DNA of 64,000 nucleotides from Calditrichia bacterium. Lineage in GTDB: Bacteria; Calditrichota; Calditrichia; JAJRVZ01. The notes below the pieces were generated by a model. That model was not told the DNA's origin. It worked only from the letters and a program-made list of their open reading frames with translations, and searched no databases. Shown piece by piece: positions 27,131 to 59,357 of this stretch. The stretch's first letter is position 1, and every line of letters begins with the position of its first letter. The translations under genes and the position numbers were made by a program. The stretch spans positions 192,001-256,000 of the forward strand of contig CAVZSQ010000019.1 of assembly GCA_963777955.1 (NCBI GenBank), in the 5' to 3' direction.

Positions 27131-28948
27131 ATGGATATCAAAAAAGTAACGGGAATTATTTTTACCGATAGTACTAACGGCTACGCTCCTGCTTATGACC
27201 TTTCCACACTTGTCAGTTATGCCCGGCAACTTGACGGAGTCAAGCTGGTCTGGAACACCACTGACTTGCCGATGTCCAATGTTCAGCAGATGGCCGAAAA
27301 AATCAAGGAACATGGATTAAATTACCTGATTCTGGCCGGTGATCTTCCGGGTCTGCAAAAAACCTTCTTTGCCAGCGCGATGATAACCGCAGGCCAGGAT
27401 CCGCTGCAGATCTTCCTGGCCAGTTTTCTTGAATACGGTGTCGTTTCCCCTGCTGAGACTGAACGGGCCAAAGCAATCCTCTATTGTGCAGTCAGAGGTC
27501 TGCGTTTTGAACAGGCAGCTCTACCCAAAGAAACACCTGTTCATCCCGACACTCTGGTTATCGGTGCAGGCATTGCCGGAATTCAGGCTGCTCTGGAGAT
27601 AGCCAATGGCGGGCAAAAAGTATATCTGCTGGAAAAAACCGGAACAATCGGCGGACATATGGCCATGTTCGATAAAACCTTCCCTACCCTGGATTGTGCA
27701 GCCTGTATCCTGACACCCAAGATGGTGGAGGTAGGTCAGCATCCCCTGATCGATCTTTTGACCTATTCCGAGGTGCAAAAAGTGAGCGGCCGGCCCGGCG
27801 AATATAAGGTGAAAATATTAAAAAAAGCCCGGCGGGTAAATATAGCCACCTGCATTGGTTGCGGTACCTGCACGGAAAAATGTCCGGCTACCGCCCCGAG
27901 CGAATTCGATGCCGCTACCAGTCTGCGCAAAGCTATCTATATCCCCTTTCCGCAGGCCGTACCCAATAAATACCTGATCGACGAAAAAAGTTGTATTTAC
28001 CTGGACCGCGGTAAATGCGGAGTCTGCGTAAAAGTATGCCCGGTACCCGATTGTATCAATCTGGACGAAAAGGACGAAGAGGTCGAGTTAACCGTCGGCA
28101 ACATTATCGTGGCCACCGGATTTCAAATATTCGATGCCCACCGTGCAGAACAATTCGGTTACGGCAAATTCCCTAATGTCATCACCTCGCTGGAGCTGGA
28201 ACGTCTGGTCAATGCCGCCGGTCCGACCGGAGGCGTTATTCACTTTCGTTCCAAAGACAAACGGGATAACTGGATTTTCTCCCCGGAAAACGATCAACCG
28301 CAAAGCATCGCCCTGATCCATTGCATCGGCAGCCGTGATGAAAACTTTCATAAATATTGCTCCAAGGTTTGCTGCATGTACTCGCTCAAGCTGGCCCACC
28401 TGATCCGTGAAAAACTTCCGACGGCAGAGATCAGCGAATTTTTTATTGACATGCGTGCCTTTGGCAAAGGTTATGAAGAATTTTATGAACGCATCAAGGA
28501 AGAGGGTATAAATATTATCCGCGGTCGCACAGCCAAAGTTGAACAATCCAATGGCCAACTGTTATTGCGCACTGAAGATATCCTGCACAATCGCCTGCTG
28601 GAAACAAAGGTGGATATGGTTGTGCTGGCGGTGGGCTTGGAACCTCGTGAAGATGCACAGAAGATAAGCGACCTGTTAGGTATTCCCTGCAGCGCAGAAG
28701 GCTGGTTCCGGGAAGCAAACATAATCAGCGATCCGGTAAACACTTTTAGCGGGGGCATCTCCATAGCCGGAGTATGCCAGGGTCCCAAAGATATTCCCGA
28801 TACAGTGGCCCAGGCTTCCGCTGCCGCATCACGGGTGCTGCAAAGTATCATCAATGGAAACGTCAAAGAAAGTATCAAGGATTTAACTTTACAGAATGTC
28901 GAAACTCAGGCTAATCAAATTTCAACCAGAGTGGAGAACCAATCATGA
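27131..28948 (+). CDS. hdrA: HdrA-like flavoprotein 1 (FAD, inserted 2x[4Fe-4S] domain, Cys-less N-terminal domain, no C-terminal ferredoxin domain)
   Basis: VIGAGIAG, DKTFPTLDCAACIL, CIGCGTCTEKCP, CIYLDRGKCGVCVKVCP, CIGSRD..YCSKVCCMYSLK, GPKDIPD. Confidence 0.92.
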   Translation: MDIKKVTGIIFTDSTNGYAPAYDLSTLVSYARQLDGVKLVWNTTDLPMSNVQQMAEKIKEHGLNYLILAGDLPGLQKTFFASAMITAGQDPLQIFLASFLEYGVVSPAETERAKAILYCAVRGLRFEQAALPKETPVHPDTLVIGAGIAGIQAALEIANGGQKVYLLEKTGTIGGHMAMFDKTFPTLDCAACILTPKMVEVGQHPLIDLLTYSEVQKVSGRPGEYKVKILKKARRVNIATCIGCGTCTEKCPATAPSEFDAATSLRKAIYIPFPQAVPNKYLIDEKSCIYLDRGKCGVCVKVCPVPDCINLDEKDEEVELTVGNIIVATGFQIFDAHRAEQFGYGKFPNVITSLELERLVNAAGPTGGVIHFRSKDKRDNWIFSPENDQPQSIALIHCIGSRDENFHKYCSKVCCMYSLKLAHLIREKLPTAEISEFFIDMRAFGKGYEEFYERIKEEGINIIRGRTAKVEQSNGQLLLRTEDILHNRLLETKVDMVVLAVGLEPREDAQKISDLLGIPCSAEGWFREANIISDPVNTFSGGISIAGVCQGPKDIPDTVAQASAAASRVLQSIINGNVKESIKDLTLQNVETQANQISTRVENQS

Positions 28949-30075
28949 ATATCCGCGTTAATCCCGATTTTCCTGCAGAATTAAAAAAGTACGGCAAGGG
29001 CGAATGGAATGACTGTTTCCATTGCGGTAATTGTACCGCTATTTGTCCCCTGACCGAAAATAATAATCTTTTTCCCAGACGAAGCATCCGCCTGCTGCAG
29101 ATGGGTTTAAGCGACCAACTGGCCTTAAATGTTGACCCCTGGTTGTGTTATTATTGCGGGGACTGCTCAAAAACATGCCCCCGTAATGCCAATCCGGGCG
29201 AGTTGATGATGAGTTTAAGGCGGTATTTGACTTCCATCTATGACTGGACCGGCCTTTCCAAAAGGTTTTATACCACCAAATTCTGGGAATTTGGTATGAT
29301 TATCTTTCTGTCTCTGTTGGTAATCAGCCTTTTTGCCTTCGCGCTGCCGCCTCTGGATCCGACACTGACCCCGCAGGGGGGTGTAAAAATAAATCAATTC
29401 GCTCCGGTGGAATGGATTGAGATCGGCGATTGGACAATGGCCGTCATTGTCGCTGCCCTGCTGATCTCAAATATTCTGCATATGTACTATAAAGTGATAC
29501 TATCGGATAAATCTATCAAGATACCGTTCCTGTACTACTTTAAAGAATTCTGGCTGCTGATCGTTCATTTCCTGACTCAGTTGCGTTTTTCCAAATGCGA
29601 TGCCGAAGGTAAAAGATACTGGTTTGGTCACTGGCTGCTCATGTCCGGTTACACGATCATGTTCACTGTAATCGTTGTCTTCTTACCATGGTTTCAGACT
29701 GAAGAGATACATCCGCTGTATCATCCCCAGCGCTTCCTGGGTTATTATGCAACATTCGGATTGTTATTTGGATTGGTATTCGCCTTGATTGGCCGCATAA
29801 AGAAAACCAGCGAAAAATTCAAATTTTCTCACTTCAGTGACTGGTTTTTCATCATCATGCTGATCATGACCACGGTTACCGGTATTATGGTGCATATCTT
29901 CAGGGTCAACGGCATGCCGGCGGCCACTTATTATACCTATATTGCTCATCTGGCGATTCTGGTGCCGATGATCATGATCGAAGTACCATTTTCTAAATGG
30001 TCGCACCTGGCTTACCGTCCTTTTGCGGTTTATTTTTCCAATTTAAAAAATACAGCCCTGGCACAACAAAAATAA
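28945..30075 (+). CDS. QmoC-like subunit: HdrC-like 2x[4Fe-4S] domain fused to an HdrE/NarI-like membrane cytochrome b domain
   Basis: CFHCGNCTAICP, PWLCYYCGDCSKTCPR; about 6 TM helices with His in GHWL, VHIF, AHLA and PFSKWSHLAYRP. Confidence 0.85.
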   Translation: MNIRVNPDFPAELKKYGKGEWNDCFHCGNCTAICPLTENNNLFPRRSIRLLQMGLSDQLALNVDPWLCYYCGDCSKTCPRNANPGELMMSLRRYLTSIYDWTGLSKRFYTTKFWEFGMIIFLSLLVISLFAFALPPLDPTLTPQGGVKINQFAPVEWIEIGDWTMAVIVAALLISNILHMYYKVILSDKSIKIPFLYYFKEFWLLIVHFLTQLRFSKCDAEGKRYWFGHWLLMSGYTIMFTVIVVFLPWFQTEEIHPLYHPQRFLGYYATFGLLFGLVFALIGRIKKTSEKFKFSHFSDWFFIIMLIMTTVTGIMVHIFRVNGMPAATYYTYIAHLAILVPMIMIEVPFSKWSHLAYRPFAVYFSNLKNTALAQQK

Positions 30076-31831
30076 ATGAATGAGGATAAAATGGAAGAAC
30101 CTAGAATAGGGGTTTATGTCTGCTGGTGCGGTTCGAATATTGCTAAAATGGTCGATGTGCAGGACGTGGCAAAATTCATCGCTAAACTGCCCGGTGTCAT
30201 AATCGCCCGTGATTATAAATACATGTGTTCGGATCCCGGTCAGGATATGGTTATTAAAGATATTAAAGAATTTAAACTGAACCGGGTGGTGGTTTCCGCC
30301 TGTTCTCCGCGAATTCATGAAATCACTTTCCGTAAAGCCCTGGAGAACGCCGGTTTAAATCCCTATATGTTCGAGATGGCCAATATCCGCGAACAGGACT
30401 CCTGGGTGCATGAAAACCGGGTGGAAGCGACACATAAAGCCAAGTCGCTGGTAGCTCGCCGCCGTTTACCGGGTCAAACATCACGAAGCGCTGGACAAGC
30501 GGACGGTGGATATCAATCCGGCCACATTGATCATCGGTGGCGGTATCGCCGGTATCTCGGCAGCTCTGGAGATTGCCAATGCCGGCAAAAAGGTTTTTCT
30601 GATCGAAAAGACAGGTGAACTGGGTGGAAATTTAACCCGCGTCGATCTTACCTTCCCCTATCTGTACAGTGCTCAGCAAATACTGAATCCGATCATCGCA
30701 CAGGTAAAAAAACATCCCAATATTTCTATTTTTCTGAACAGCACTATTGATGAAGTGTACGGATATGTGGGAAATTTCGAGACAACTTTGAAAAATCAAA
30801 ATGGCCAGGATCTGCTATTAAAATTCGGAAATGTCATCGTGGCGACCGGCCTGAAACCATTTGATCCGGCCGTGATCCCCGAATATAATTACGGCAAACT
30901 GCCGGATATCATTACCTCTTACGAATTCGAGCGTATGCTGCTAAGCGGGCAGATCCTTAGCAAAGCAGGAAAGATCCCTAAAAATATTGCCATCATCCAT
31001 TGCGTGGGCAGCCGGAATCCCAAATATCATCCGTACTGTTCCCGCACCTGTTGTTTGACTGCGCTCAAGTATTCCAACCAGATCCGCTCAGCCCTGCCGG
31101 ATGCGAATATCTATCAATTGTATGCTGACATGCGGTCTATGGGCAAAGGCTGCGAGGAATTATATACCCGTACTTCCAGGCAGGGGGTTATGTTCCTGAT
31201 GTTTGATCAGAAACGCAATTTGCCGCGAGTGCGCAAAGCGGATACGCACGATAACTGCAGTATGGTAATCGAAATGAATGAATTATTGTCTGGTGAAACT
31301 GTGGAGGTCCCTGCGGATCTGGTCATCCTGATGGTCAACATGGAAGCGCATGATGATTCAGCGGACGTGGCCCATGCGGTCGGTGTGAGTAAATGCGGCA
31401 ATGATTTCTATATTGAGAAACATCCCAAACTGGATCCGGTGGCCACTACCACCGATGGTGTATATATCGCCGGCAACTGTCAGAGCCCCAAGCACATTCC
31501 TGATTCCATTGCGCAGGCTAAAGCGGCTGCAGCCCGCATCCTGGCCACTATCAAGGTTGCCTCGGTTAATGTAGAAGTGACCACCGCCCAGGTGAATGAA
31601 GATATTTGCTGCGGCTGCCAGACCTGCATAAAAGTCTGCCCGTATACAGCGATCAGTTACCTGGCGGACAAGAAAGTTTCTTTTGTTAATGATATCCTGT
31701 GTAAAGGGTGCGGAACATGCGGATCGGCCTGTCCGACCGGTGCCATTCGCAGCAGGCATTTCACCGATCAACAGATCATGTCCGAAATCGAAGGTATCCT
31801 GCAATTTGAAATGGAGGAGGCTGTACCATGA
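30076..31831 (+). CDS. hdrA: HdrA-like flavoprotein 2 (N-terminal Fe-S domain, FAD, C-terminal 2x[4Fe-4S], no inserted ferredoxin; +1 frameshift near 30457)
   Basis: [65 protein letters not shown] and [12 protein letters not shown]. Confidence 0.9.
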
Positions 31832-32253
31832 GTTTTCGACCCACGATCATATCCTTTCTGTGCAACTGGTGTTCCTATACGGGTGCGGATCTGGCCGGAA
31901 CTTCGCGTATGAAATATTCTTCAAATATCCGGGTGATCCGGGTAATGTGTTCAGGCCGTATTGACCCTACTTTTGTTTTGAAAGCCCTGCGCGAAGGAGC
32001 GGACGGTGTTTTAATCTGCGGATGTCATCCCGGTGATTGTCATTATCATGAGGGTAATTATAAATGCCTGCGCCGCTTCCACCTGTTACAAAAATATCTC
32101 GAACAGATGGGAATCAATAAAGAGCGTATACGCCTGGAATGGGTCAGCGCCTCCGAAGGGAAACGATTCGCTGAAGTTGTAAACAGCATGACCGAGACCA
32201 TAAAAAAACTGGGTCCGTGCGAAGTTCGTCAAACCATGGAAAAACTAAATTAG
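31828..32253 (+). CDS. mvhD: MvhD [2Fe-2S] subunit
   Basis: [39 protein letters not shown]. Confidence 0.96.
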
Positions 32254-32267
32254 CAGGGAGAACAAGG

Positions 32268-33248
32268 ATGGCCGAGGTTCAGCAAAAACCAAAAATAAAA
32301 ATGGCCGTTTACTGGGGTGCAGCATGCGGTGGTTGTTGTGTATCGGTACTCGATGTCCATGAAAAATTATTTGACGTGGTGGCCGCTGCCGATCTGGTAT
32401 TCTGGCCGATTGCCCTGGATATTAAATACAAAGACGTTGAAGCGATGCCGGATGGTCATATCGATGTCACCCTGTTCAATGGTGCTGTGCGTAATAGCGA
32501 GAACGAGCATATGGCCAAACTGCTGCGCCAAAAGACAAAAGTACTGGTAGCCTACGGTTCCTGTGCGCATATGGGCGGGATTCCCGGTCTGGCCAATTTC
32601 AGTACTAAGGAAGAAATTTTTAAAAGGGTTTATCTGGAGAGCGAATCCACCATTAATCCCGATAAAATTATGCCCCAAACTAAATTCCAGGTAAAAGAAG
32701 GCGAACTTGAATTGCCGGTTTTTTATAACGATGTACGGGCCTTGAACCAGGCGGTTGATGTGGATTATTACCTGCCCGGTTGCCCACCGCAAACGGAACG
32801 ATTACTGGAAGTATTTATGGCCATCGTCAGCGGTGCCACTCTTCCGCCTAAAGGATCGGTGGTCGGTGCCAACGAAAAGGCGCTCTGTGACGAATGTGAA
32901 CGCACCAAGAGCGATGCTAAAACAATTAAAAGATTTTACCGGCCTTATGAAATTGTCGATGACGGTAAAACCTGTTTTCTGGAGCAAGGGGTTATTTGTA
33001 TGGGTCTGGCCACCCGCGGTGGTTGCGGATCACGCTGTATCAAGGGTAATGCCCCCTGCCGCGGTTGTTATGGGCCACCGATCACGGCACCCGATGCCGG
33101 CACCAAAATGATGTCTTCACTGGCGACCATGATCGATTCCAACGATGCGGATGAGATACAGAAAATTGTCGGGCAAATCGCCGATCCGGCCGGGACTTTT
33201 TACCGGACCAGCCTGCCCACTTCGATTATCAGGAGGAAACTAGCATGA
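32268..33248 (+). CDS. mvhG: [NiFe]-hydrogenase small subunit MvhG
   Basis: ACGGC, GSCA..GGIPGLAN, PGCPP, CDEC, CFLEQG.ICMG..T..GC...C...N.PCRGC; no Tat signal. Confidence 0.93.
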   Translation: MAEVQQKPKIKMAVYWGAACGGCCVSVLDVHEKLFDVVAAADLVFWPIALDIKYKDVEAMPDGHIDVTLFNGAVRNSENEHMAKLLRQKTKVLVAYGSCAHMGGIPGLANFSTKEEIFKRVYLESESTINPDKIMPQTKFQVKEGELELPVFYNDVRALNQAVDVDYYLPGCPPQTERLLEVFMAIVSGATLPPKGSVVGANEKALCDECERTKSDAKTIKRFYRPYEIVDDGKTCFLEQGVICMGLATRGGCGSRCIKGNAPCRGCYGPPITAPDAGTKMMSSLATMIDSNDADEIQKIVGQIADPAGTFYRTSLPTSIIRRKLA

Positions 33249-34706
33249 CGCGGATAACCATCGATCCGATTACCCGTCTGGAAGGACATGGCAAAATAGA
33301 AATTTTTCTGGATAATGCCGGTGATGTGGAAAATGTATACTTTCAGGTCCCCGAATTACGCGGCTTTGAAAAATTCTGCGAAGGCCGGCCAATCGAGGAA
33401 GTTTCAGCGATTGTCACCAAGATCTGCGGAGTGTGCCCGGGTTGTCATCACATGGCAGCCGGTAAAGCGGCCGATGCCGTTTTTGGTGTGGAGCCGACAC
33501 CGACGGCTAAGAAGATCAGGGAATTGTTTTACATGGCTCATTTCGTCCACAGCCACATTGCCCATTTTTATGCTCTGGCCGCCCCAGATTTTGTAGTCGG
33601 ACCCACTGCCCCTCCGGCCGAGCGCAATATTCTGGGAGTGATTGCTAAAGTCGGTGTGGAAATTGGCACGGAAGTGATCAAACAACGCCGTATTGCCCAG
33701 GAAATACAGGCACTACTGGGCGGCCACCAGACCCATGTTGTACTGAATATCCCGGGAGGTGTGCGGAAAGGTTTGACTGAAGAACAACGTCTTGATATAG
33801 TCAAGAAGGCCGAGGGCTTCGTCGAATTCGCCAAATTTTCGTTAAAAATCTTCAACGATGTGGTTCTGGCCAATAAACAGTACGTCGATATTATACTTAA
33901 CGGTCCCTATTCCTTAAAATTACATTCCATGGGTCTGGTGGACGAAAACAATAAAGTCAATTTTTATGATGGTAAAGTACGGGTTGTGGATACTACCGGT
34001 AAAGAACATTGCAAATATGCCCCCCGCGAATACCAGAAGTACGTGGCCGAACGGGTTGAACCATGGAGTTATCTGAAATTTCCATACCTCAGGCAGATCG
34101 GTTGGAAAGGATTTGTAGACGGCCAGGAATCCGGGATTTACCACGCCACACCTCTTTCGCGTTTGAATGCTGCCGATGGTATGGCCACCCCGCTGGCTCA
34201 GGCCGAATATGAAAGGATGTATGCAACTCTGGGCGGGAAACCGGTCCATGCCACGCTGGCTATGCACTGGGCCCGTTTGATTGAACTCCTCTATGCGGCG
34301 GAACATTGTTTAGAACTGGCCAAAGATAAATCCATCACTTCCACCGACTTGCGGGCCAAACTGGATAAAAAGCCCAGCGGAAGGGGTGGGCATCGTTGAA
34401 GCACAGCGCGGCACCCTGACTCACCATTACTGGACGGATGAAAAAGGTATCATTACCAAAGCCAATATCATAGTCGGCACAACCAATAACAATGCAGCCA
34501 TCTGTATGTCGTTGAAGAAAGCCGCACAGGGATTGATAAAAAAAGGCGTACCGGTGACCGAAGGTATGCTCAATATGGTGGAAATGGCTTTCCGGGCTTA
34601 TGATCCATGCTTTTCCTGTGCCACCCACAGTTTACCTGGAACAATGCCCATGATAGTAAACATACATGATTCAGCAGGGATTATAATTCAAACTTTAAAA
34701 CGATGA
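33245..34706 (+). CDS. mvhA: [NiFe]-hydrogenase large subunit MvhA, group 3c-like (+1 frameshift near 34380)
   Basis: IDPITRLEGH, RGFE, L1 KICGVCPGCH, EAQRGTL.HHY, L2 RAYDPCFSCATH plus cleavable C-terminal extension. Confidence 0.93.
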
Positions 34707-34732
34707 AGAATTCTATTTAAAGCAAGTAGTAT

Positions 34733-34759
34733 ACAGGGGCGGGTTTTTCTCGCCCCTGT
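34733..34759 (+). terminator. Stem-loop between mvhA and the maturation protease gene
   Basis: ACAGGGGCG-GGTTTTTCT-CGCCCCTGT followed by TTATTT. Confidence 0.6.
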
Positions 34760-34778
34760 TTATTTAAGGGCTGGTTAA

Positions 34779-35246
34779 TTGAAAAATACAACTTTAATTC
34801 TGGGCATTGGTAATGAGATCCTTAAGGATGACGGTATCGGCCCTAAAATCGTCAGCCGGCTGGCTGGTGAATTTCCAGCAAGTGACTTCGACTATCAGTC
34901 AGCCAGCCTGGGCGGATTGGAATTAGTTGAATTGATCCGGGGTTATCAAAGAGTAATCTTAATCGATGCAATTAATACAGGCCAGGGTCAGGTAGGGGAT
35001 GTATATTTCTTTACACCTCAGGATTTTAAGGAAACATTACATTTGTCAAATTTACACGATATCTCTTTCCTGCAGGCGCTGGAATTAGGCAGACATATAA
35101 ATATCCCAATCCCTGAAGAGATCCAGATTATCGCTATTGAAATAAGGGAAGATAAAGTCTTTGGTGAAGATTTCAGCCCTGAATTACAAAACCGCTATGA
35201 ACAGATCTATAAATCAATTAAAGATTACCTTAAAAAAATCGGGTGA
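34779..35246 (+). CDS. Hydrogenase maturation endopeptidase
   Basis: ILGIGNEILKDDGIG, ILIDAI and SNLHD motifs; follows mvhA. Confidence 0.93.
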   Translation: MKNTTLILGIGNEILKDDGIGPKIVSRLAGEFPASDFDYQSASLGGLELVELIRGYQRVILIDAINTGQGQVGDVYFFTPQDFKETLHLSNLHDISFLQALELGRHINIPIPEEIQIIAIEIREDKVFGEDFSPELQNRYEQIYKSIKDYLKKIG

Positions 35247-57335: not shown

Positions 57336-59357
57336 TTATGATAATTCTCCGGCAATTAATTCGGCAATATCCTTGACCGCCAAGGCCGATCCGGTTCCGA
57401 TTTCATTACCGGCATCGCGCAGCATGGTCAGGCAGAACGGACAGGCGGTACACAAAACAGATGTACCGGTTGATTCAGCCTCCCTGTATCTATTGCGACG
57501 GACGGCGTCCTGTCCCGTTTCTTCTTCCTTCCACATGTTGCCGCCGCCGGCTCCACAACAGAAACTGCGATTTTTTCTGCGGGTCATTTCAATCAATTCT
57601 ATACCAGCCTGTTCTAAAACCTGGCGCGGCGGATCAAAGACTCCATTGTGCCGCCCAAGATAACAGGGATCGTGAAAGGTAACAGTTTCATTGCCGGTCC
57701 GGTTCAGAGCAAGTTTTTTCTCGGATATCAACCGGGTTATGACCTGAGTGTGATGTACAACTTCATAATTGCCGCCGTATTGCGGATACTCATTTTTTAA
57801 AGTGTGCAGGCAGTGCGGACAGGTTACCACGATTTTTTTAACCCTGGCAGCGTTGAGGATGGCAATATTCTTTTCAGCCAGCATGGCAAACAAGTATTCA
57901 TTGCCGGTTCGACGCGCACTATCGCCGGTGCAGGATTCTTTGTTACCCAGCACGGCAAAATTTACATCAGCCCGGTTGAGAATTCGAACAAAAGCACGGG
58001 CAACCTGTTGTCCGCGCTGGTCAAAAGCTCCGGCACAGCCTACCCAGTACAGGAGCTCAAAATCCGGATTCTGCTCGACGGTTTTTACCATTAATCGCGA
58101 ATCCTCTTTCACCCATTCCAGACGGTCCTTATTCAGATTCCAGGGATTTCCGTTCCGTTCCATGCCGTTAAAAGCAGTCTGCAATTTGTGCGGGAATTTA
58201 GCTGCGCTCAGCACCTGATCGCGGCGAATGTTGAGGATATCATACATTGGTTCATTGCCCACCGGACAGATTTCCACACATGCCGCACAACTGGTACAAC
58301 CCCATAAGGCCGACTCGCTCAGGGCAAAATCCAGCAGGGGGGCACTGCTCCGCCCTGCCCTGATTAAGTCGTACCGTTGCTGATTGATATAATAGCGCTT
58401 GTTGATTTCCAGTGCGGCCGGACTTAATTCTTTACCGGTCAGGTACGCCGGACATACTTCCTGGCAGCGGTTGCACATGATACAGGCATACGCATCGATT
58501 AACTGTGATTTGTCCAGATGTTCCAGACGATTTACACCGAAATGGTCGGCGGAGGCATCTTCCAGGTCCAACTTTTCCAGTGTCCCCGGTGCATTACGCT
58601 GCTTTTTTGTCAGATAATTGACAGGACCCATGAACAGGTGGGCATGCTTGCTCAAAGGGAAATAAGGAATGAAAACCAGGATCAGTCCGATGGCGCCCCA
58701 CCAGGAGATATGATGCAAAACAGCAAGGGTTGGAGGATTAATGGAAATCCAGTAACGCGAAAGCAGCGATGCCAGGGACTGGCAGGGATCCCCTGTACCT
58801 GACTGAGCCAGTTTAAAACTTTCCCCCAAGAACCGGAGGCCGACGTGAAAAAAAATGAATAGTCCGACGATCAGGGAATCGCGGAGGATACCCCGGCGTA
58901 CAGGTTGATAGATCAGGACATTTTCTCTGATCTGCAAATGAGTTGATTTAAATATGAATCGCCTGATTAAAAAGAAAACTACCGCCAGCAGGCACAGAAC
59001 ACTGAAAACATCGACAAAAAGGCGGTACAACCTACCCGGTTGGGTATCATGGATGAGACTATTAAAAGCCAGACTGAATCCGGCAATGACATCAAACAGG
59101 TTGACCAGGAAATACAGCATGAAAGCCCAGGCGATTAAAGCATGGATGATGCTGATCAACGGCCGGTTAGTGAAAACGGTACGCTGGGAAATTAAAACGG
59201 ATATTGCCCTGGTAATTCTTTTAAAAGGATGGTCAAAATATAGTTTCCCCTGCCCGCGGTTGATGACTTTGATCATAGTGGAAAATGTACGCCAGCACAG
59301 GAGCAAGCATCCTAAGGACAGGACCACGAATATAATTTTCTCCGGAAGTGAGAGCAT
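57336..59357 (-). CDS. Membrane-bound Fe-S oxidoreductase (NarI-like TM + 2x[4Fe-4S] + two CCG domains; FadF/HdrF/EMO-like)
   Basis: SKHAHLF, CIMCNRCQEVCP, CTSCAACVEICP, WVGC, CTGD, TCPHC, HDPCYLGR, CCGAGGG, ACPFC. Confidence 0.9.
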   Translation of the reverse strand: MLSLPEKIIFVVLSLGCLLLCWRTFSTMIKVINRGQGKLYFDHPFKRITRAISVLISQRTVFTNRPLISIIHALIAWAFMLYFLVNLFDVIAGFSLAFNSLIHDTQPGRLYRLFVDVFSVLCLLAVVFFLIRRFIFKSTHLQIRENVLIYQPVRRGILRDSLIVGLFIFFHVGLRFLGESFKLAQSGTGDPCQSLASLLSRYWISINPPTLAVLHHISWWGAIGLILVFIPYFPLSKHAHLFMGPVNYLTKKQRNAPGTLEKLDLEDASADHFGVNRLEHLDKSQLIDAYACIMCNRCQEVCPAYLTGKELSPAALEINKRYYINQQRYDLIRAGRSSAPLLDFALSESALWGCTSCAACVEICPVGNEPMYDILNIRRDQVLSAAKFPHKLQTAFNGMERNGNPWNLNKDRLEWVKEDSRLMVKTVEQNPDFELLYWVGCAGAFDQRGQQVARAFVRILNRADVNFAVLGNKESCTGDSARRTGNEYLFAMLAEKNIAILNAARVKKIVVTCPHCLHTLKNEYPQYGGNYEVVHHTQVITRLISEKKLALNRTGNETVTFHDPCYLGRHNGVFDPPRQVLEQAGIELIEMTRRKNRSFCCGAGGGNMWKEEETGQDAVRRNRYREAESTGTSVLCTACPFCLTMLRDAGNEIGTGSALAVKDIAELIAGELS

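Follow-up and report, generated by a model that had tools for sequence, protein, structure and literature searches.

The closest described system is found in Archaeoglobi. In Ca. Methanoglobus nevadensis / M. hypatiae, MvhAGD, two HdrA proteins and a QmoC-HdrC protein have been proposed to couple H2, menaquinone and ferredoxin (bioRxiv 2022.12.01.518715; bioRxiv 2023.09.08.556235; ISME J 18:wrae026, PMC10945360), and the archaeal Mvh-Qmo-Hdr cluster is highly transcribed, at 995-2,431 RPKM (bioRxiv 2023.09.08.556235; PMC10945360). A precedent for the same two acceptors is EtfABCX, which bifurcates electrons from NADH to menaquinone and ferredoxin (PMC10734219). No characterised HdrA-type enzyme with H2 as donor and a quinone as high-potential acceptor was found in the literature searched.

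Could a bacterial operon support such a coupling? We analysed a 64,000-nucleotide stretch (the window) of a Calditrichia bacterium contig, for which a first-pass annotation had proposed a hybrid hydrogenase complex that passes electrons from H2 to quinone and ferredoxin. The anatomy described below agrees with a membrane-anchored, HdrB-less and Apr-independent Mvh-HdrA-QmoC complex. The novelty implied by that annotation goes too far, since the same hypothesis has already been put forward for Archaeoglobi (Buessecker et al. bioRxiv 2022.12.01.518715; Lynes et al. bioRxiv 2023.09.08.556235, ISME J 2024); its remark that no such complex is biochemically characterised holds for the literature found, archaeal papers included.

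Operon layout and gene calls

Seven closely packed genes lie on the forward strand between 27131 and 35246, in the order and at the coordinates first annotated, as borne out by ORF and profile matches:

27131..28948, + strand: hdrA1, 605 aa; predicted bifurcating subunit and ferredoxin exit
28945..30075, + strand: qmoC-like, 376 aa; predicted haem b / menaquinone module; NF038018 205.8 bits, cut-off 300
30076..31831, + strand: hdrA2, with the layout of QmoB but no fused MvhD; one extra base interrupts the frame
31828..32253, + strand: mvhD, [2Fe-2S] adaptor; PF02662, E 3e-58
32268..33248, + strand: mvhG, hydrogenase small subunit
33245..34706, + strand: mvhA, large subunit of an Mvh-type (group 3c-like) [NiFe] hydrogenase; frame interrupted by one extra base
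34733..34759, + strand: terminator-like hairpin in the mvhA/protease gap; 11 pairs, 8 of them G-C; a pattern match only
34779..35246, + strand: hydrogenase maturation protease; TIGR00072 above cut-off

The sequence bears out both the ATGA overlaps (28945, 31828 and 33245) and the abutting TAA/ATG at 30075/30076. For mvhG we chose the ATG at 32268, which has a purine-rich stretch just before it, instead of the GTG at 32217 given in the ORF list. Upstream of hdrA1 there is a Rex-like site with 3 mismatches (p about 0.04; three patterns were scanned across 27 regions), which is not a general feature; Fnr and Crp patterns showed no enrichment over the regions scanned, and promoter-like sites were no more frequent than in shuffled sequence.

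The set for a cytoplasmic Mvh-type [NiFe] hydrogenase is complete, consisting of MvhG, MvhD and an MvhA that carries the TKICGVCPGCH and AFRAYDPCFSCATH motifs (both CxxC) and a cleavable tail. A PDB search with the intact MvhA homologue from locus L029 gave 5odc_F as best match (E 1e-117), and MvhA is 81-87% identical among Bacteroidota loci.

Distribution of the operon

A synteny search showed that the order recurs: hdrA1-qmoC-hdrA2 is kept in 23 of 30 related loci and runs on into mvhD in 19, so the arrangement is not due to chance. The run from qmoC through mvhA is found in 15 of the 30, and 4 further loci hit a contig edge after mvhD. Both hdrB and aprAB are missing from all 30 related loci and from 7 additional loci of Mvh type. 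Within Calditrichota the operon is confined to one genus (2 of 86 genomes), into which it probably came from Bacteroidales by transfer; both trees are quick and midpoint-rooted. The literature searched gave no description of the operon in Bacteroidota or Calditrichota, by title, abstract or passage, although Pereira et al. 2011 or Appel et al. 2021 may already list the bacterial arrangement. Neither its spread in Bacteroidales nor the likely transfer into one Calditrichota genus was found in that literature.

Frameshifts in hdrA2 and mvhA

One extra base near 30456 splits hdrA2, and another near 34377 splits mvhA. Does the operon therefore represent a recently decayed locus? The assembly does carry both frameshifts, and no sequencing run contained at least half of the sampled words from this strain, so that the strain's own reads went unseen. 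Both changes, however, are single extra bases that are missing from a genome of the same genus (G043) and from contigs of related organisms (for the base near 30456, 3 contigs from 2 of the 4 runs; for that near 34377, 2 contigs from 1 of the 4), and unrelated host genes are split as well, namely hypE, the Flx-Hdr hdrA and a phosphomannomutase. We regard the extra bases as probable assembly errors and decay of the operon as very unlikely. An apparent frameshift at another locus (L002) is an N-gap and not a real frameshift.

Two complementary HdrA proteins

HdrA1 has a degenerate N-terminal domain without cluster cysteines. Its FAD domain carries DKTFPTLDCAAC, with the equivalents of K187, C194 and C197, together with the HA4 cluster motif and the equivalents of E356 and K409; a 2x[4Fe-4S] ferredoxin domain is inserted, and the C-terminal ferredoxin is absent. 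HdrA2 possesses the N-terminal cluster domain, an FAD domain, the HA4 motif and a C-terminal 2x[4Fe-4S] domain, and its FAD domain is devoid of K187, C197 and the inserted ferredoxin. The features of a bifurcating HdrA (FAD motif, HA4 cluster, Cys197 and the equivalents of Lys187, Glu356 and Lys409, the last three of which we take to be the bifurcation-site residues) are invariant in 17 of 17 HdrA1 sequences. With 17 sequences for each protein, the DKTF segment is invariant in HdrA1 (26/26) versus 2/26 in HdrA2, and HdrA1 is the more conserved in 5 of 5 other FAD-proximal segments. Since the E356 and K409 equivalents are retained in HdrA2 as well, assignment of the flavin to HdrA1 is not exclusive.

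Judged from their motifs, the two proteins are complementary and together retain one bifurcating unit, to which HdrA2 would contribute the mobile arm; HdrA1 would supply the conserved site for the flavin, together with Cys197 and the way out to ferredoxin. This division of domains fits the arm/FAD'/HA4'/HA5' model in PMC12350162, where the inserted ferredoxin domain of HdrA is the known way out for low-potential electrons; Cys197 complementarity, reported in PMC9012536, matches the HdrA1/HdrA2 pair. HdrA proteins of 1,120-1,157 aa from other Calditrichota were considered as tandem fusions, and motif mapping resolved them into one full HdrA with an insertion.

The HdrA pair might instead be a mere wire within a plain H2:menaquinone oxidoreductase that has a cytoplasmic active site and reduces no ferredoxin. 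The operon lacks a ferredoxin gene, and for QmoABC, the nearest membrane relative, bifurcation has been proposed but not demonstrated in the sources as far as consulted. The inserted ferredoxin domain of HdrA1, needless for a plain wire, is nevertheless strongly conserved among the 17 sequences, and we consider a wire unlikely.

The QmoC-like membrane subunit

The QmoC-like protein starts with an HdrC-like 2x[4Fe-4S] domain, followed by six predicted membrane helices. His229, His335 and His354 are present in 52 of 52 QmoC-type sequences, while His317 is specific to the clade; the three-histidine pattern resembles the three haem ligands of EMO/EtfD. The ligand pattern fits one haem on the cytoplasmic side, and a putative outer haem would rely on His335 and perhaps also His317. 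The protein is of QmoC type, as first annotated, and has the conserved histidines, but scores below the NF038018 cut-off of 300 (205.8 bits, against 376 and 389 for Apr-linked QmoC), shares 24-28% identity with Apr-linked QmoC and occupies a separate branch of the tree. In that tree, locus L115 is tagged apr without an adjoining aprA, and locus L004 is tagged tusA with none on its short contig. The branch from HdrC-like clusters through haem b to quinone, envisaged in the first-pass annotation, has the domain and the three family histidines in its favour, with haem binding a prediction from these residues. Fold matches of the model to EtfD (Z 9.9, rmsd 4.4, 216 aligned) and NarI (Z 8.3, rmsd 5.9, 180 aligned) lie at Z 8-10, where helical bundles can score by chance; Foldseek returned nothing at E<=0.001, and the Fe-S loops in the model are of low confidence. 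Near QmoC relatives occur without hydrogenase: in 28 of the 40 loci sampled they are linked to TusA, and in loci L017-L020 they are fused to a receiver, so the membrane module is not specific to H2.

The predicted complex scored 0.87, compared with 0.48 for the best control, and passed a mark reached by 116 of 157 solved pairs and 2 of 215 mismatched pairs. Contacts were at least 93% consistent between runs, with a partner pLDDT of 82, and involve HdrA1 residues 398 and 402-405 (the HA4 loop) and QmoC residues 22-33 and 77-81; the HA4 loop of HdrA2 is not among the contacts named. The QmoC-like Fe-S domain is thus predicted to dock on the cluster loop of HdrA1, and the pass may reflect memory of solved HdrABC structures.

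Possible electron acceptors in the host genome

Where would the high-potential electrons end? The cluster has no CCG-domain HdrB, as first annotated; a CCG protein encoded elsewhere in the window is HdrF/EtfD-like (57336-59357, 22 kb from the cluster). The annotation's absence of aprAB, sat and dsr extends to the genome, which is 91.8% complete and has no match to aprA, dsrA or sat, and none to aprA/B by HMM or tblastn. One could picture the branch ending at the Flx-Hdr HdrB, the HdrF/EtfD-like protein or AprAB, so that a disulfide or APS is reduced and not quinone. The host does encode three CCG proteins, HdrD has been proposed to substitute for HdrB in Ca. Methanomixophus, and aprA is found in 3 of 21 searched genomes holding this QmoC clade (beside its own qmoABC in the one long-enough locus). 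Yet the sole host HdrB lies in a separate hdrCBA-mvhD-flx (Flx-Hdr) operon on contig C26, where it has its own HdrC and HdrA; the QmoC-like protein matches HdrC only over its N-terminal ~110 residues, the remainder being membrane helices; and aprA/B are unmatched in this host. Such an ending has, in our estimate, a very slim chance. A genome encoding aprAB or hdrBC that are co-expressed and co-purify with these subunits had been named as evidence against the quinone branch: hdrBC do exist, but are confined to the Flx-Hdr operon.

A quinone ending is compatible with the host. The doubt about menaquinone raised by the missing mqnC of the futalosine pathway is settled by the men operon, with menGFDBAE above cut-offs. 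Also present are hypBDF, quinol sinks (NrfHA, fumarate reductase and ACIII/cbb3), a group 3b hydrogenase, 2-oxoacid:ferredoxin oxidoreductase genes and succinate dehydrogenase/fumarate reductase. No RnfC scored above cut-off, and a crude motif scan, too coarse to exclude their presence, gave no match for cytochrome bd or [FeFe]-hydrogenase.

Proposed mechanism and energetics

We slightly favour a membrane-anchored complex in which electrons from H2 are divided at the HdrA1 flavin between menaquinone and ferredoxin, with 2 H2 + menaquinone + 2 ferredoxin(ox) as reactants. By analogy with solved HdrABC, electrons would pass from MvhAG to MvhD, carried on a mobile arm of HdrA2's N-terminal and C-terminal domains, and from the arm to FAD in HdrA1, the partner subunit. 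Of the two electrons, the high-potential one would travel through the HdrA1 HA4 cluster and the two QmoC clusters to the cytoplasm-side haem b (His229/His354) and menaquinone. Its low-potential counterpart would use the HdrA2 shuttle cluster, completed by the HdrA1 Cys197 equivalent, and leave through the inserted ferredoxin domain of HdrA1 to ferredoxin. For menaquinol reoxidation the host could use NrfHA, fumarate reductase or ACIII/cbb3, and reduced ferredoxin might feed a complex I without NuoEFG, Flx-Hdr or biosynthesis. The bifurcation first annotated is consistent with the HdrA1 site residues, ferredoxin exit, family histidines and host menaquinone; bifurcation itself, haem binding and direction are inferred.

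Calculated with ferredoxin at -450 mV, bifurcation yields -59 kJ at 1 bar H2 and -13 kJ at 10 Pa; with ferredoxin at -500 mV it is uphill at 1 Pa H2 (+8 kJ). Might the complex mainly run in reverse, confurcating menaquinol and reduced ferredoxin into H2 as an electron sink in fermentation or syntrophy? At 1-10 Pa H2 and ferredoxin at -500 mV the reaction is near equilibrium (-3 to +8 kJ), the 2-oxoacid:ferredoxin oxidoreductases are encoded, and succinate dehydrogenase/fumarate reductase could give quinol. Reversal, however, requires H2 of about 1 Pa or lower and strongly reduced ferredoxin, a membrane-potential cost would presumably come on top with a quinol site on the outer side, and the host already has its group 3b hydrogenase and several quinol oxidases. 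We therefore think reversal improbable as the main direction, and retain H2-driven bifurcation as the preferred reading.

More tentatively, and at somewhat under even chances, the operon could define a widespread bacterial class of membrane-bound bifurcating hydrogenases, with a single-path HdrA heterodimer and a two-haem quinone module, by which sediment Bacteroidales and, laterally, one Calditrichota genus reduce menaquinone and ferredoxin with H2. The HdrA-pair/QmoC chassis would then be a general platform for quinone-linked bifurcation with swappable inputs (hydrogenase, TusA/DsrE sulfur carriers, receiver/GcvH-like sensor). The published candidates are hot-spring archaea that are hard to grow, and a conserved bacterial version widens the organisms and genes available for testing. 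The asymmetric HdrA pair offers a natural route to assign the bifurcating flavin, a question shared with QmoABC. If active, the complex would give heterotrophs that abound in sediments and wetlands a further way of using H2. Its genes can be mistaken for markers of sulfate reduction or of methanogens.

Comparison with known systems

In gene content, the Archaeoglobi Mvh-Qmo-Hdr cluster agrees with ours in all six core genes (a qmoC/hdrC fusion, two hdrA, mvhD, mvhG, mvhA) and in the absence of HdrB and AprAB, and the same coupling has been proposed for it. Its order by locus tag is qmoC-hdrA-hdrA-mvhDGA, compared with hdrA1-qmoC-hdrA2-mvhDGA here, and its hosts are hot-spring archaeal methanogens, whereas ours is a bacterial heterotroph.

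MvhAGD-HdrABC of hydrogenotrophic methanogens (PDB 5ODC, 8RVU, 9SW2) shares the Mvh hydrogenase, the HdrA fold and cofactor motifs and the HdrC-like clusters. It has HdrB, which is absent here, where a membrane fusion replaces HdrC; and its one full four-domain HdrA forms a homodimer, whereas here the domains are split between HdrA1 and HdrA2. With a complementary heterodimer in place of the homodimer, a single electron path is predicted, not two.

QmoABC of sulfate reducers has in common two HdrA-like flavoproteins and an HdrC/cytochrome b fusion with the three histidines, and HdrA2 plus MvhD correspond to the QmoB layout. Unlike in QmoABC, MvhD has a gene of its own, with MvhGA next in line; QmoA in locus L058 has 421 aa, compared with 605 aa for HdrA1 with its inserted ferredoxin domain; and QmoABC partners AprAB, whereas here AprAB, Sat and any linkage to sulfate reduction are lacking.

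EtfABCX relies on an Etf-family flavin and NADH, in place of HdrA and H2. The EMO/EtfD membrane domain (PDB 9OJN; bioRxiv 10.64898/2026.08.18.745454), the best fold match at a Z (9.9) that helical bundles can also reach by chance, shares the three-histidine haem pattern, and its HdrC-like clusters adjoin the haem and menaquinone site, as proposed for the QmoC-like subunit. EMO has CCG domains and receives electrons from ETF, whereas the QmoC-like protein has no CCG domain and instead carries an N-terminal Fe-S domain and the extra His317.

Gene content and integrity of the operon

The seven genes claimed by the first-pass annotation, with their order and junctions, were all confirmed in the window sequence.

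27131-28948 (+), hdrA1, HdrA by family scan
28945-30075 (+), qmoC-like gene, QmoC family match under the cut-off (205.8 versus 300 bits)
30076-31831 (+), hdrA2, HdrA by family scan
mvhD, mvhG, mvhA (33245-34706) and protease gene (34779-35246), all (+), FlpD/MvhD, VhuG, VhuA and maturation protease by family scans

Could the operon be a pseudogene in this strain? One extra base splits hdrA2 and another splits mvhA, as such decay would have it. In the same-genus genome G043 both bases are absent and both genes are open throughout. The base at 30456/7 is likewise missing from related contigs (3 contigs, 2/4 runs), as is that at 34377 (2 contigs, 1/4 runs), and the host assembly contains further split genes (hypE, the hdrA of the flx-type operon and a phosphomannomutase gene). 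Judged from these comparisons, the breaks are probably assembly indels, and we regard decay as very unlikely. The operon is real and conserved, and probably functional.

The first nickel motif of MvhA (33416-33448) reads KICGVCPGCH, with an additional cysteine, in the window and in all 16 QmoC-linked MvhA of our tree; HdrB-linked MvhA carry RICGVCP(E/T/S)AH. The former is a possible marker for the QmoC-linked subgroup. A palindrome resembling TATGAC-N4-GTCATA recurs 5' of hdrA1 in seven loci (L008, L011, L015, L022, L024, L120, L122), with none seen in the window, and a Crp/Fnr-family gene lies just upstream in L120 and L124.

Distribution and probable lateral transfer

A scan of GTDB genomes returned 30 loci, and the synteny search proposed at first pass bore out the arrangement: 23/30 have the order hdrA1-qmoC-hdrA2, mvhD is next in 19, and the run reaches mvhA in 15. 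Four hit a contig end after mvhD or inside mvhG, five lack mvh despite continuing sequence, three have another layout and three are too short. Neither hdrB nor aprAB is present in any of the 30. Loci with hdrA1-qmoC-hdrA2 but no mvh include those of Rikenellaceae MAGs (L017:5976-13661; also L018-L020). There, HdrA1 (1,013 aa) has a response-regulator receiver plus a GcvH-like domain fused in front. Another receiver/GcvH-like protein, of 530 aa, is encoded after hdrA2, and upstream there is a two-component pair.

A QmoC-like match at E<=1e-40 was obtained in 98 of 401 genomes from the order to which one Bacteroidales carrier belongs. Forty loci from this order, a non-random set picked by score tier, comprised 7 Mvh-type, 28 TusA-linked, 3 aprBA-qmoABC and 2 other. 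The commonest relative in this sample (28/40) is a dsrE-tusA-mvhD-like-hdrA-hdrA-qmoC operon without hydrogenase; these loci are L091-L112, L116, L117, L121, L123, L127 and L129. AprA exceeded the cut-off in 3/21 genomes with this QmoC clade, and in the single long locus among these carriers aprA has its own qmoABC. Canonical aprBA-qmoABC clusters occur in several genomes of the order (L058, L114, L118, L119).

How might the operon have reached Calditrichota? The QmoC-like gene is found in 2/86 genomes of the phylum, the host and G043 only, and MvhA-like genes in 25/86. Identity to the window MvhA is at most 64% in the phylum outside the genus versus 81-87% in Bacteroidota loci. Among 17 fetched Mvh loci of the phylum, hdrB adjoins mvh in 14 and the other three are cut short; qmoC was seen in none of them. 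A quick tree built from 16 Bacteroidota and 13 of these 17 phylum loci, with a single 3b sequence as outgroup, places the window MvhA inside the Bacteroidota QmoC-linked group (SH-aLRT 100); QmoC falls within the 19-row Mvh-linked set of another (support 97). Both flanks match the same-genus neighbour genome. Acquisition from Bacteroidales would be the simplest reading. Other Calditrichota (L042-L045, L047-L051) have Mvh with HdrCB and a 1,120-1,157 aa HdrA bearing a large insertion.

Two complementary HdrA subunits

HdrA residues were compared with 5ODC, numbers being counted by hand. HdrA1 retains Lys187, Cys194/Cys197, Glu356, the cysteines of the HA4 cluster, Lys409 and the inserted ferredoxin, invariant in 17 sequences; its N-terminal cluster cysteines and C-terminal ferredoxin are both absent. 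In HdrA2 these last two elements are present, the C-terminal ferredoxin being well conserved, and there is no Lys187, Cys197 or inserted ferredoxin. We take the equivalents of Lys187, Glu356 and Lys409 to be flavin-related residues of bifurcating HdrA. Invariant positions in FAD-proximal segments number, for HdrA1 versus HdrA2, 9/15 vs 4/15, 26/26 vs 2/26, 5/10 vs 3/10, 8/10 vs 3/10, 12/14 vs 4/14 and 12/16 vs 6/16. Against an HdrA1-only flavin, Glu356 and Lys409 are also kept in HdrA2.

In a published model, an arm made of the MvhD-type subunit together with one HdrA's N- and C-terminal domains serves the other HdrA's FAD; the high-potential electron exits through HA4 of the FAD-bearing subunit, and the low-potential electron reaches that subunit's inserted ferredoxin via a shuttle cluster (PMC12350162). 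With this model, the domain split would leave exactly one electron path, centred on HdrA1. Cys197/N-terminal complementarity is described for tandem HdrAs of ANME (PMC9012536).

The QmoC-like membrane subunit

Residues 1-95 match HdrC, and six predicted membrane helices follow (model pLDDT 81.6). His229, His335 and His354 are present in 52/52 Mvh-, TusA- and Apr-type sequences; His317, in 23/24 Mvh-linked sequences, tracks clade, not partner. In EMO and EtfD two histidines are described as ligating a cytoplasm-side haem, with a third on the outer side. By analogy and inferred topology, His229/His354 would lie on the inner and His317/His335 on the outer side. A fold search ranked EtfD first (Z 9.9, rmsd 4.4, 216 aligned) and NarI second (Z 8.3, rmsd 5.9, 180 aligned) and HdrC fourth (Z 7.4, rmsd 2.6, 99 aligned), all modest for a helical protein; Foldseek gave no significant match with the same model.

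The multimer modelling suggested earlier, with both HdrA cores and QmoC 1-100, scored 0.87 against 0.48 for the best control, and predicts docking of the QmoC Fe-S domain at the HdrA1 HA4 loop, which would touch its first cluster region (contact agreement >=93%, partner pLDDT 82). The score mark is reached by 116/157 solved and 2/215 mismatched pairs; the pass may reflect memory because solved HdrABC structures resemble the predicted arrangement.

Host context and energetics

The claimed independence from Apr extends beyond the window: aprA, dsrA and sat have no match in the host genome (4.24 Mb, 91.8% complete, 5.0% contaminated), nor did AprA and AprB of L058, an aprBA-qmoABC locus, as tblastn queries. 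The absence of HdrB held for the operon and not for the genome. Three CCG proteins are encoded: HdrB, a LutA-like protein and an HdrF/EtfD-like one.

Window 57336-59357 (-), HdrF/EtfD-like membrane Fe-S/CCG protein, 673 aa, no etf genes seen adjoining
L032:7863-14513 (contig C26), hdrC-hdrB-hdrA-mvhD-flx-type operon containing the HdrB, frameshifts at the hdrB/hdrA junction and within hdrA
L040:2222-12588 (contig C21), second nuo cluster, no nuoE, F or G seen
C3:19109-21196 and C5:8327-10432 (separate contigs), two near-identical nrfHA-like copies, possibly a strain mixture
C18:51119-56678 and C19:146151-157862, multihaem cytochromes of large size with 20 and 25 CxxCH motifs, plus clustered genes for proteins with 6-12 haems

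These CCG proteins could supply a partner in trans, as could an Apr; with HdrB in its own operon and aprA unmatched, we consider this very unlikely.

Menaquinone synthesis, a further check proposed at first pass, is encoded (menG, F, D, B, A and E, each passing its cut-off), as are hypB, D and F, a group 3b hydrogenase, Sdh/Frd, cbb3 oxidase, an ACIII-like cluster and an NrfHA-like pair (NrfH above cut-off, NrfA just below). Complex I comprises one full set and the second nuo cluster, possibly a ferredoxin-fed form. The genome thus encodes menaquinone synthesis together with sinks for quinol and for ferredoxin.

H2 lies at -414 mV. Published values are -74 mV for menaquinone and about -450 mV for ferredoxin (PMC10734219). 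For 2 H2 + MK + 2 Fd(ox) these give -59 kJ with H2 at 1 bar, -13 kJ with 10 Pa and -1.5 kJ with 1 Pa; with ferredoxin at -500 mV the value at 1 Pa turns positive. H2 uptake with bifurcation is, by a slight balance of probability, the favoured direction over most of the H2 range. Reverse confurcation, in which the same complex makes H2, is unlikely. A plain H2:quinone wire would have no need of the inserted ferredoxin of HdrA1; we think it equally improbable.

Relation to known systems

Is such a complex new? Buessecker et al. (bioRxiv 2022.12.01.518715) describe, for a relative of Archaeoglobus without AprAB, a gene cluster for Mvh subunits, two HdrA and a fused QmoC-HdrC, and offer a speculation on how electrons flow between H2, ferredoxin and menaquinone. 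Lynes et al. (bioRxiv 2023.09.08.556235; PMC10945360) report the same archaeal cluster transcribed at 995-2,431 RPKM, hypothesise H2 -> menaquinone + ferredoxin bifurcation, to be tested, and list qmoC/hdrC, hdrA, hdrA, mvhD, mvhG and mvhA on consecutive locus tags (Dataset S5). Related literature includes PMC3333476, PMC5165239, PMC7380581 and bioRxiv 2024.09.26.615249. The concept is already in print. What the present copy contributes is a likely transfer between phyla, a host in which the whole quinone context is encoded, and an assignment of the bifurcating flavin to HdrA1 that lends itself to testing. On its input side the operon resembles MvhAGD-HdrABC and on its output side QmoC/EMO, yet it belongs to neither the canonical Mvh-Hdr nor the canonical Qmo family; DiSCo describes a distinct QmoABC, with both QmoA and QmoB HdrA-like. 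In gene content, the window operon matches the Mvh-Qmo-Hdr kind proposed for Archaeoglobi.
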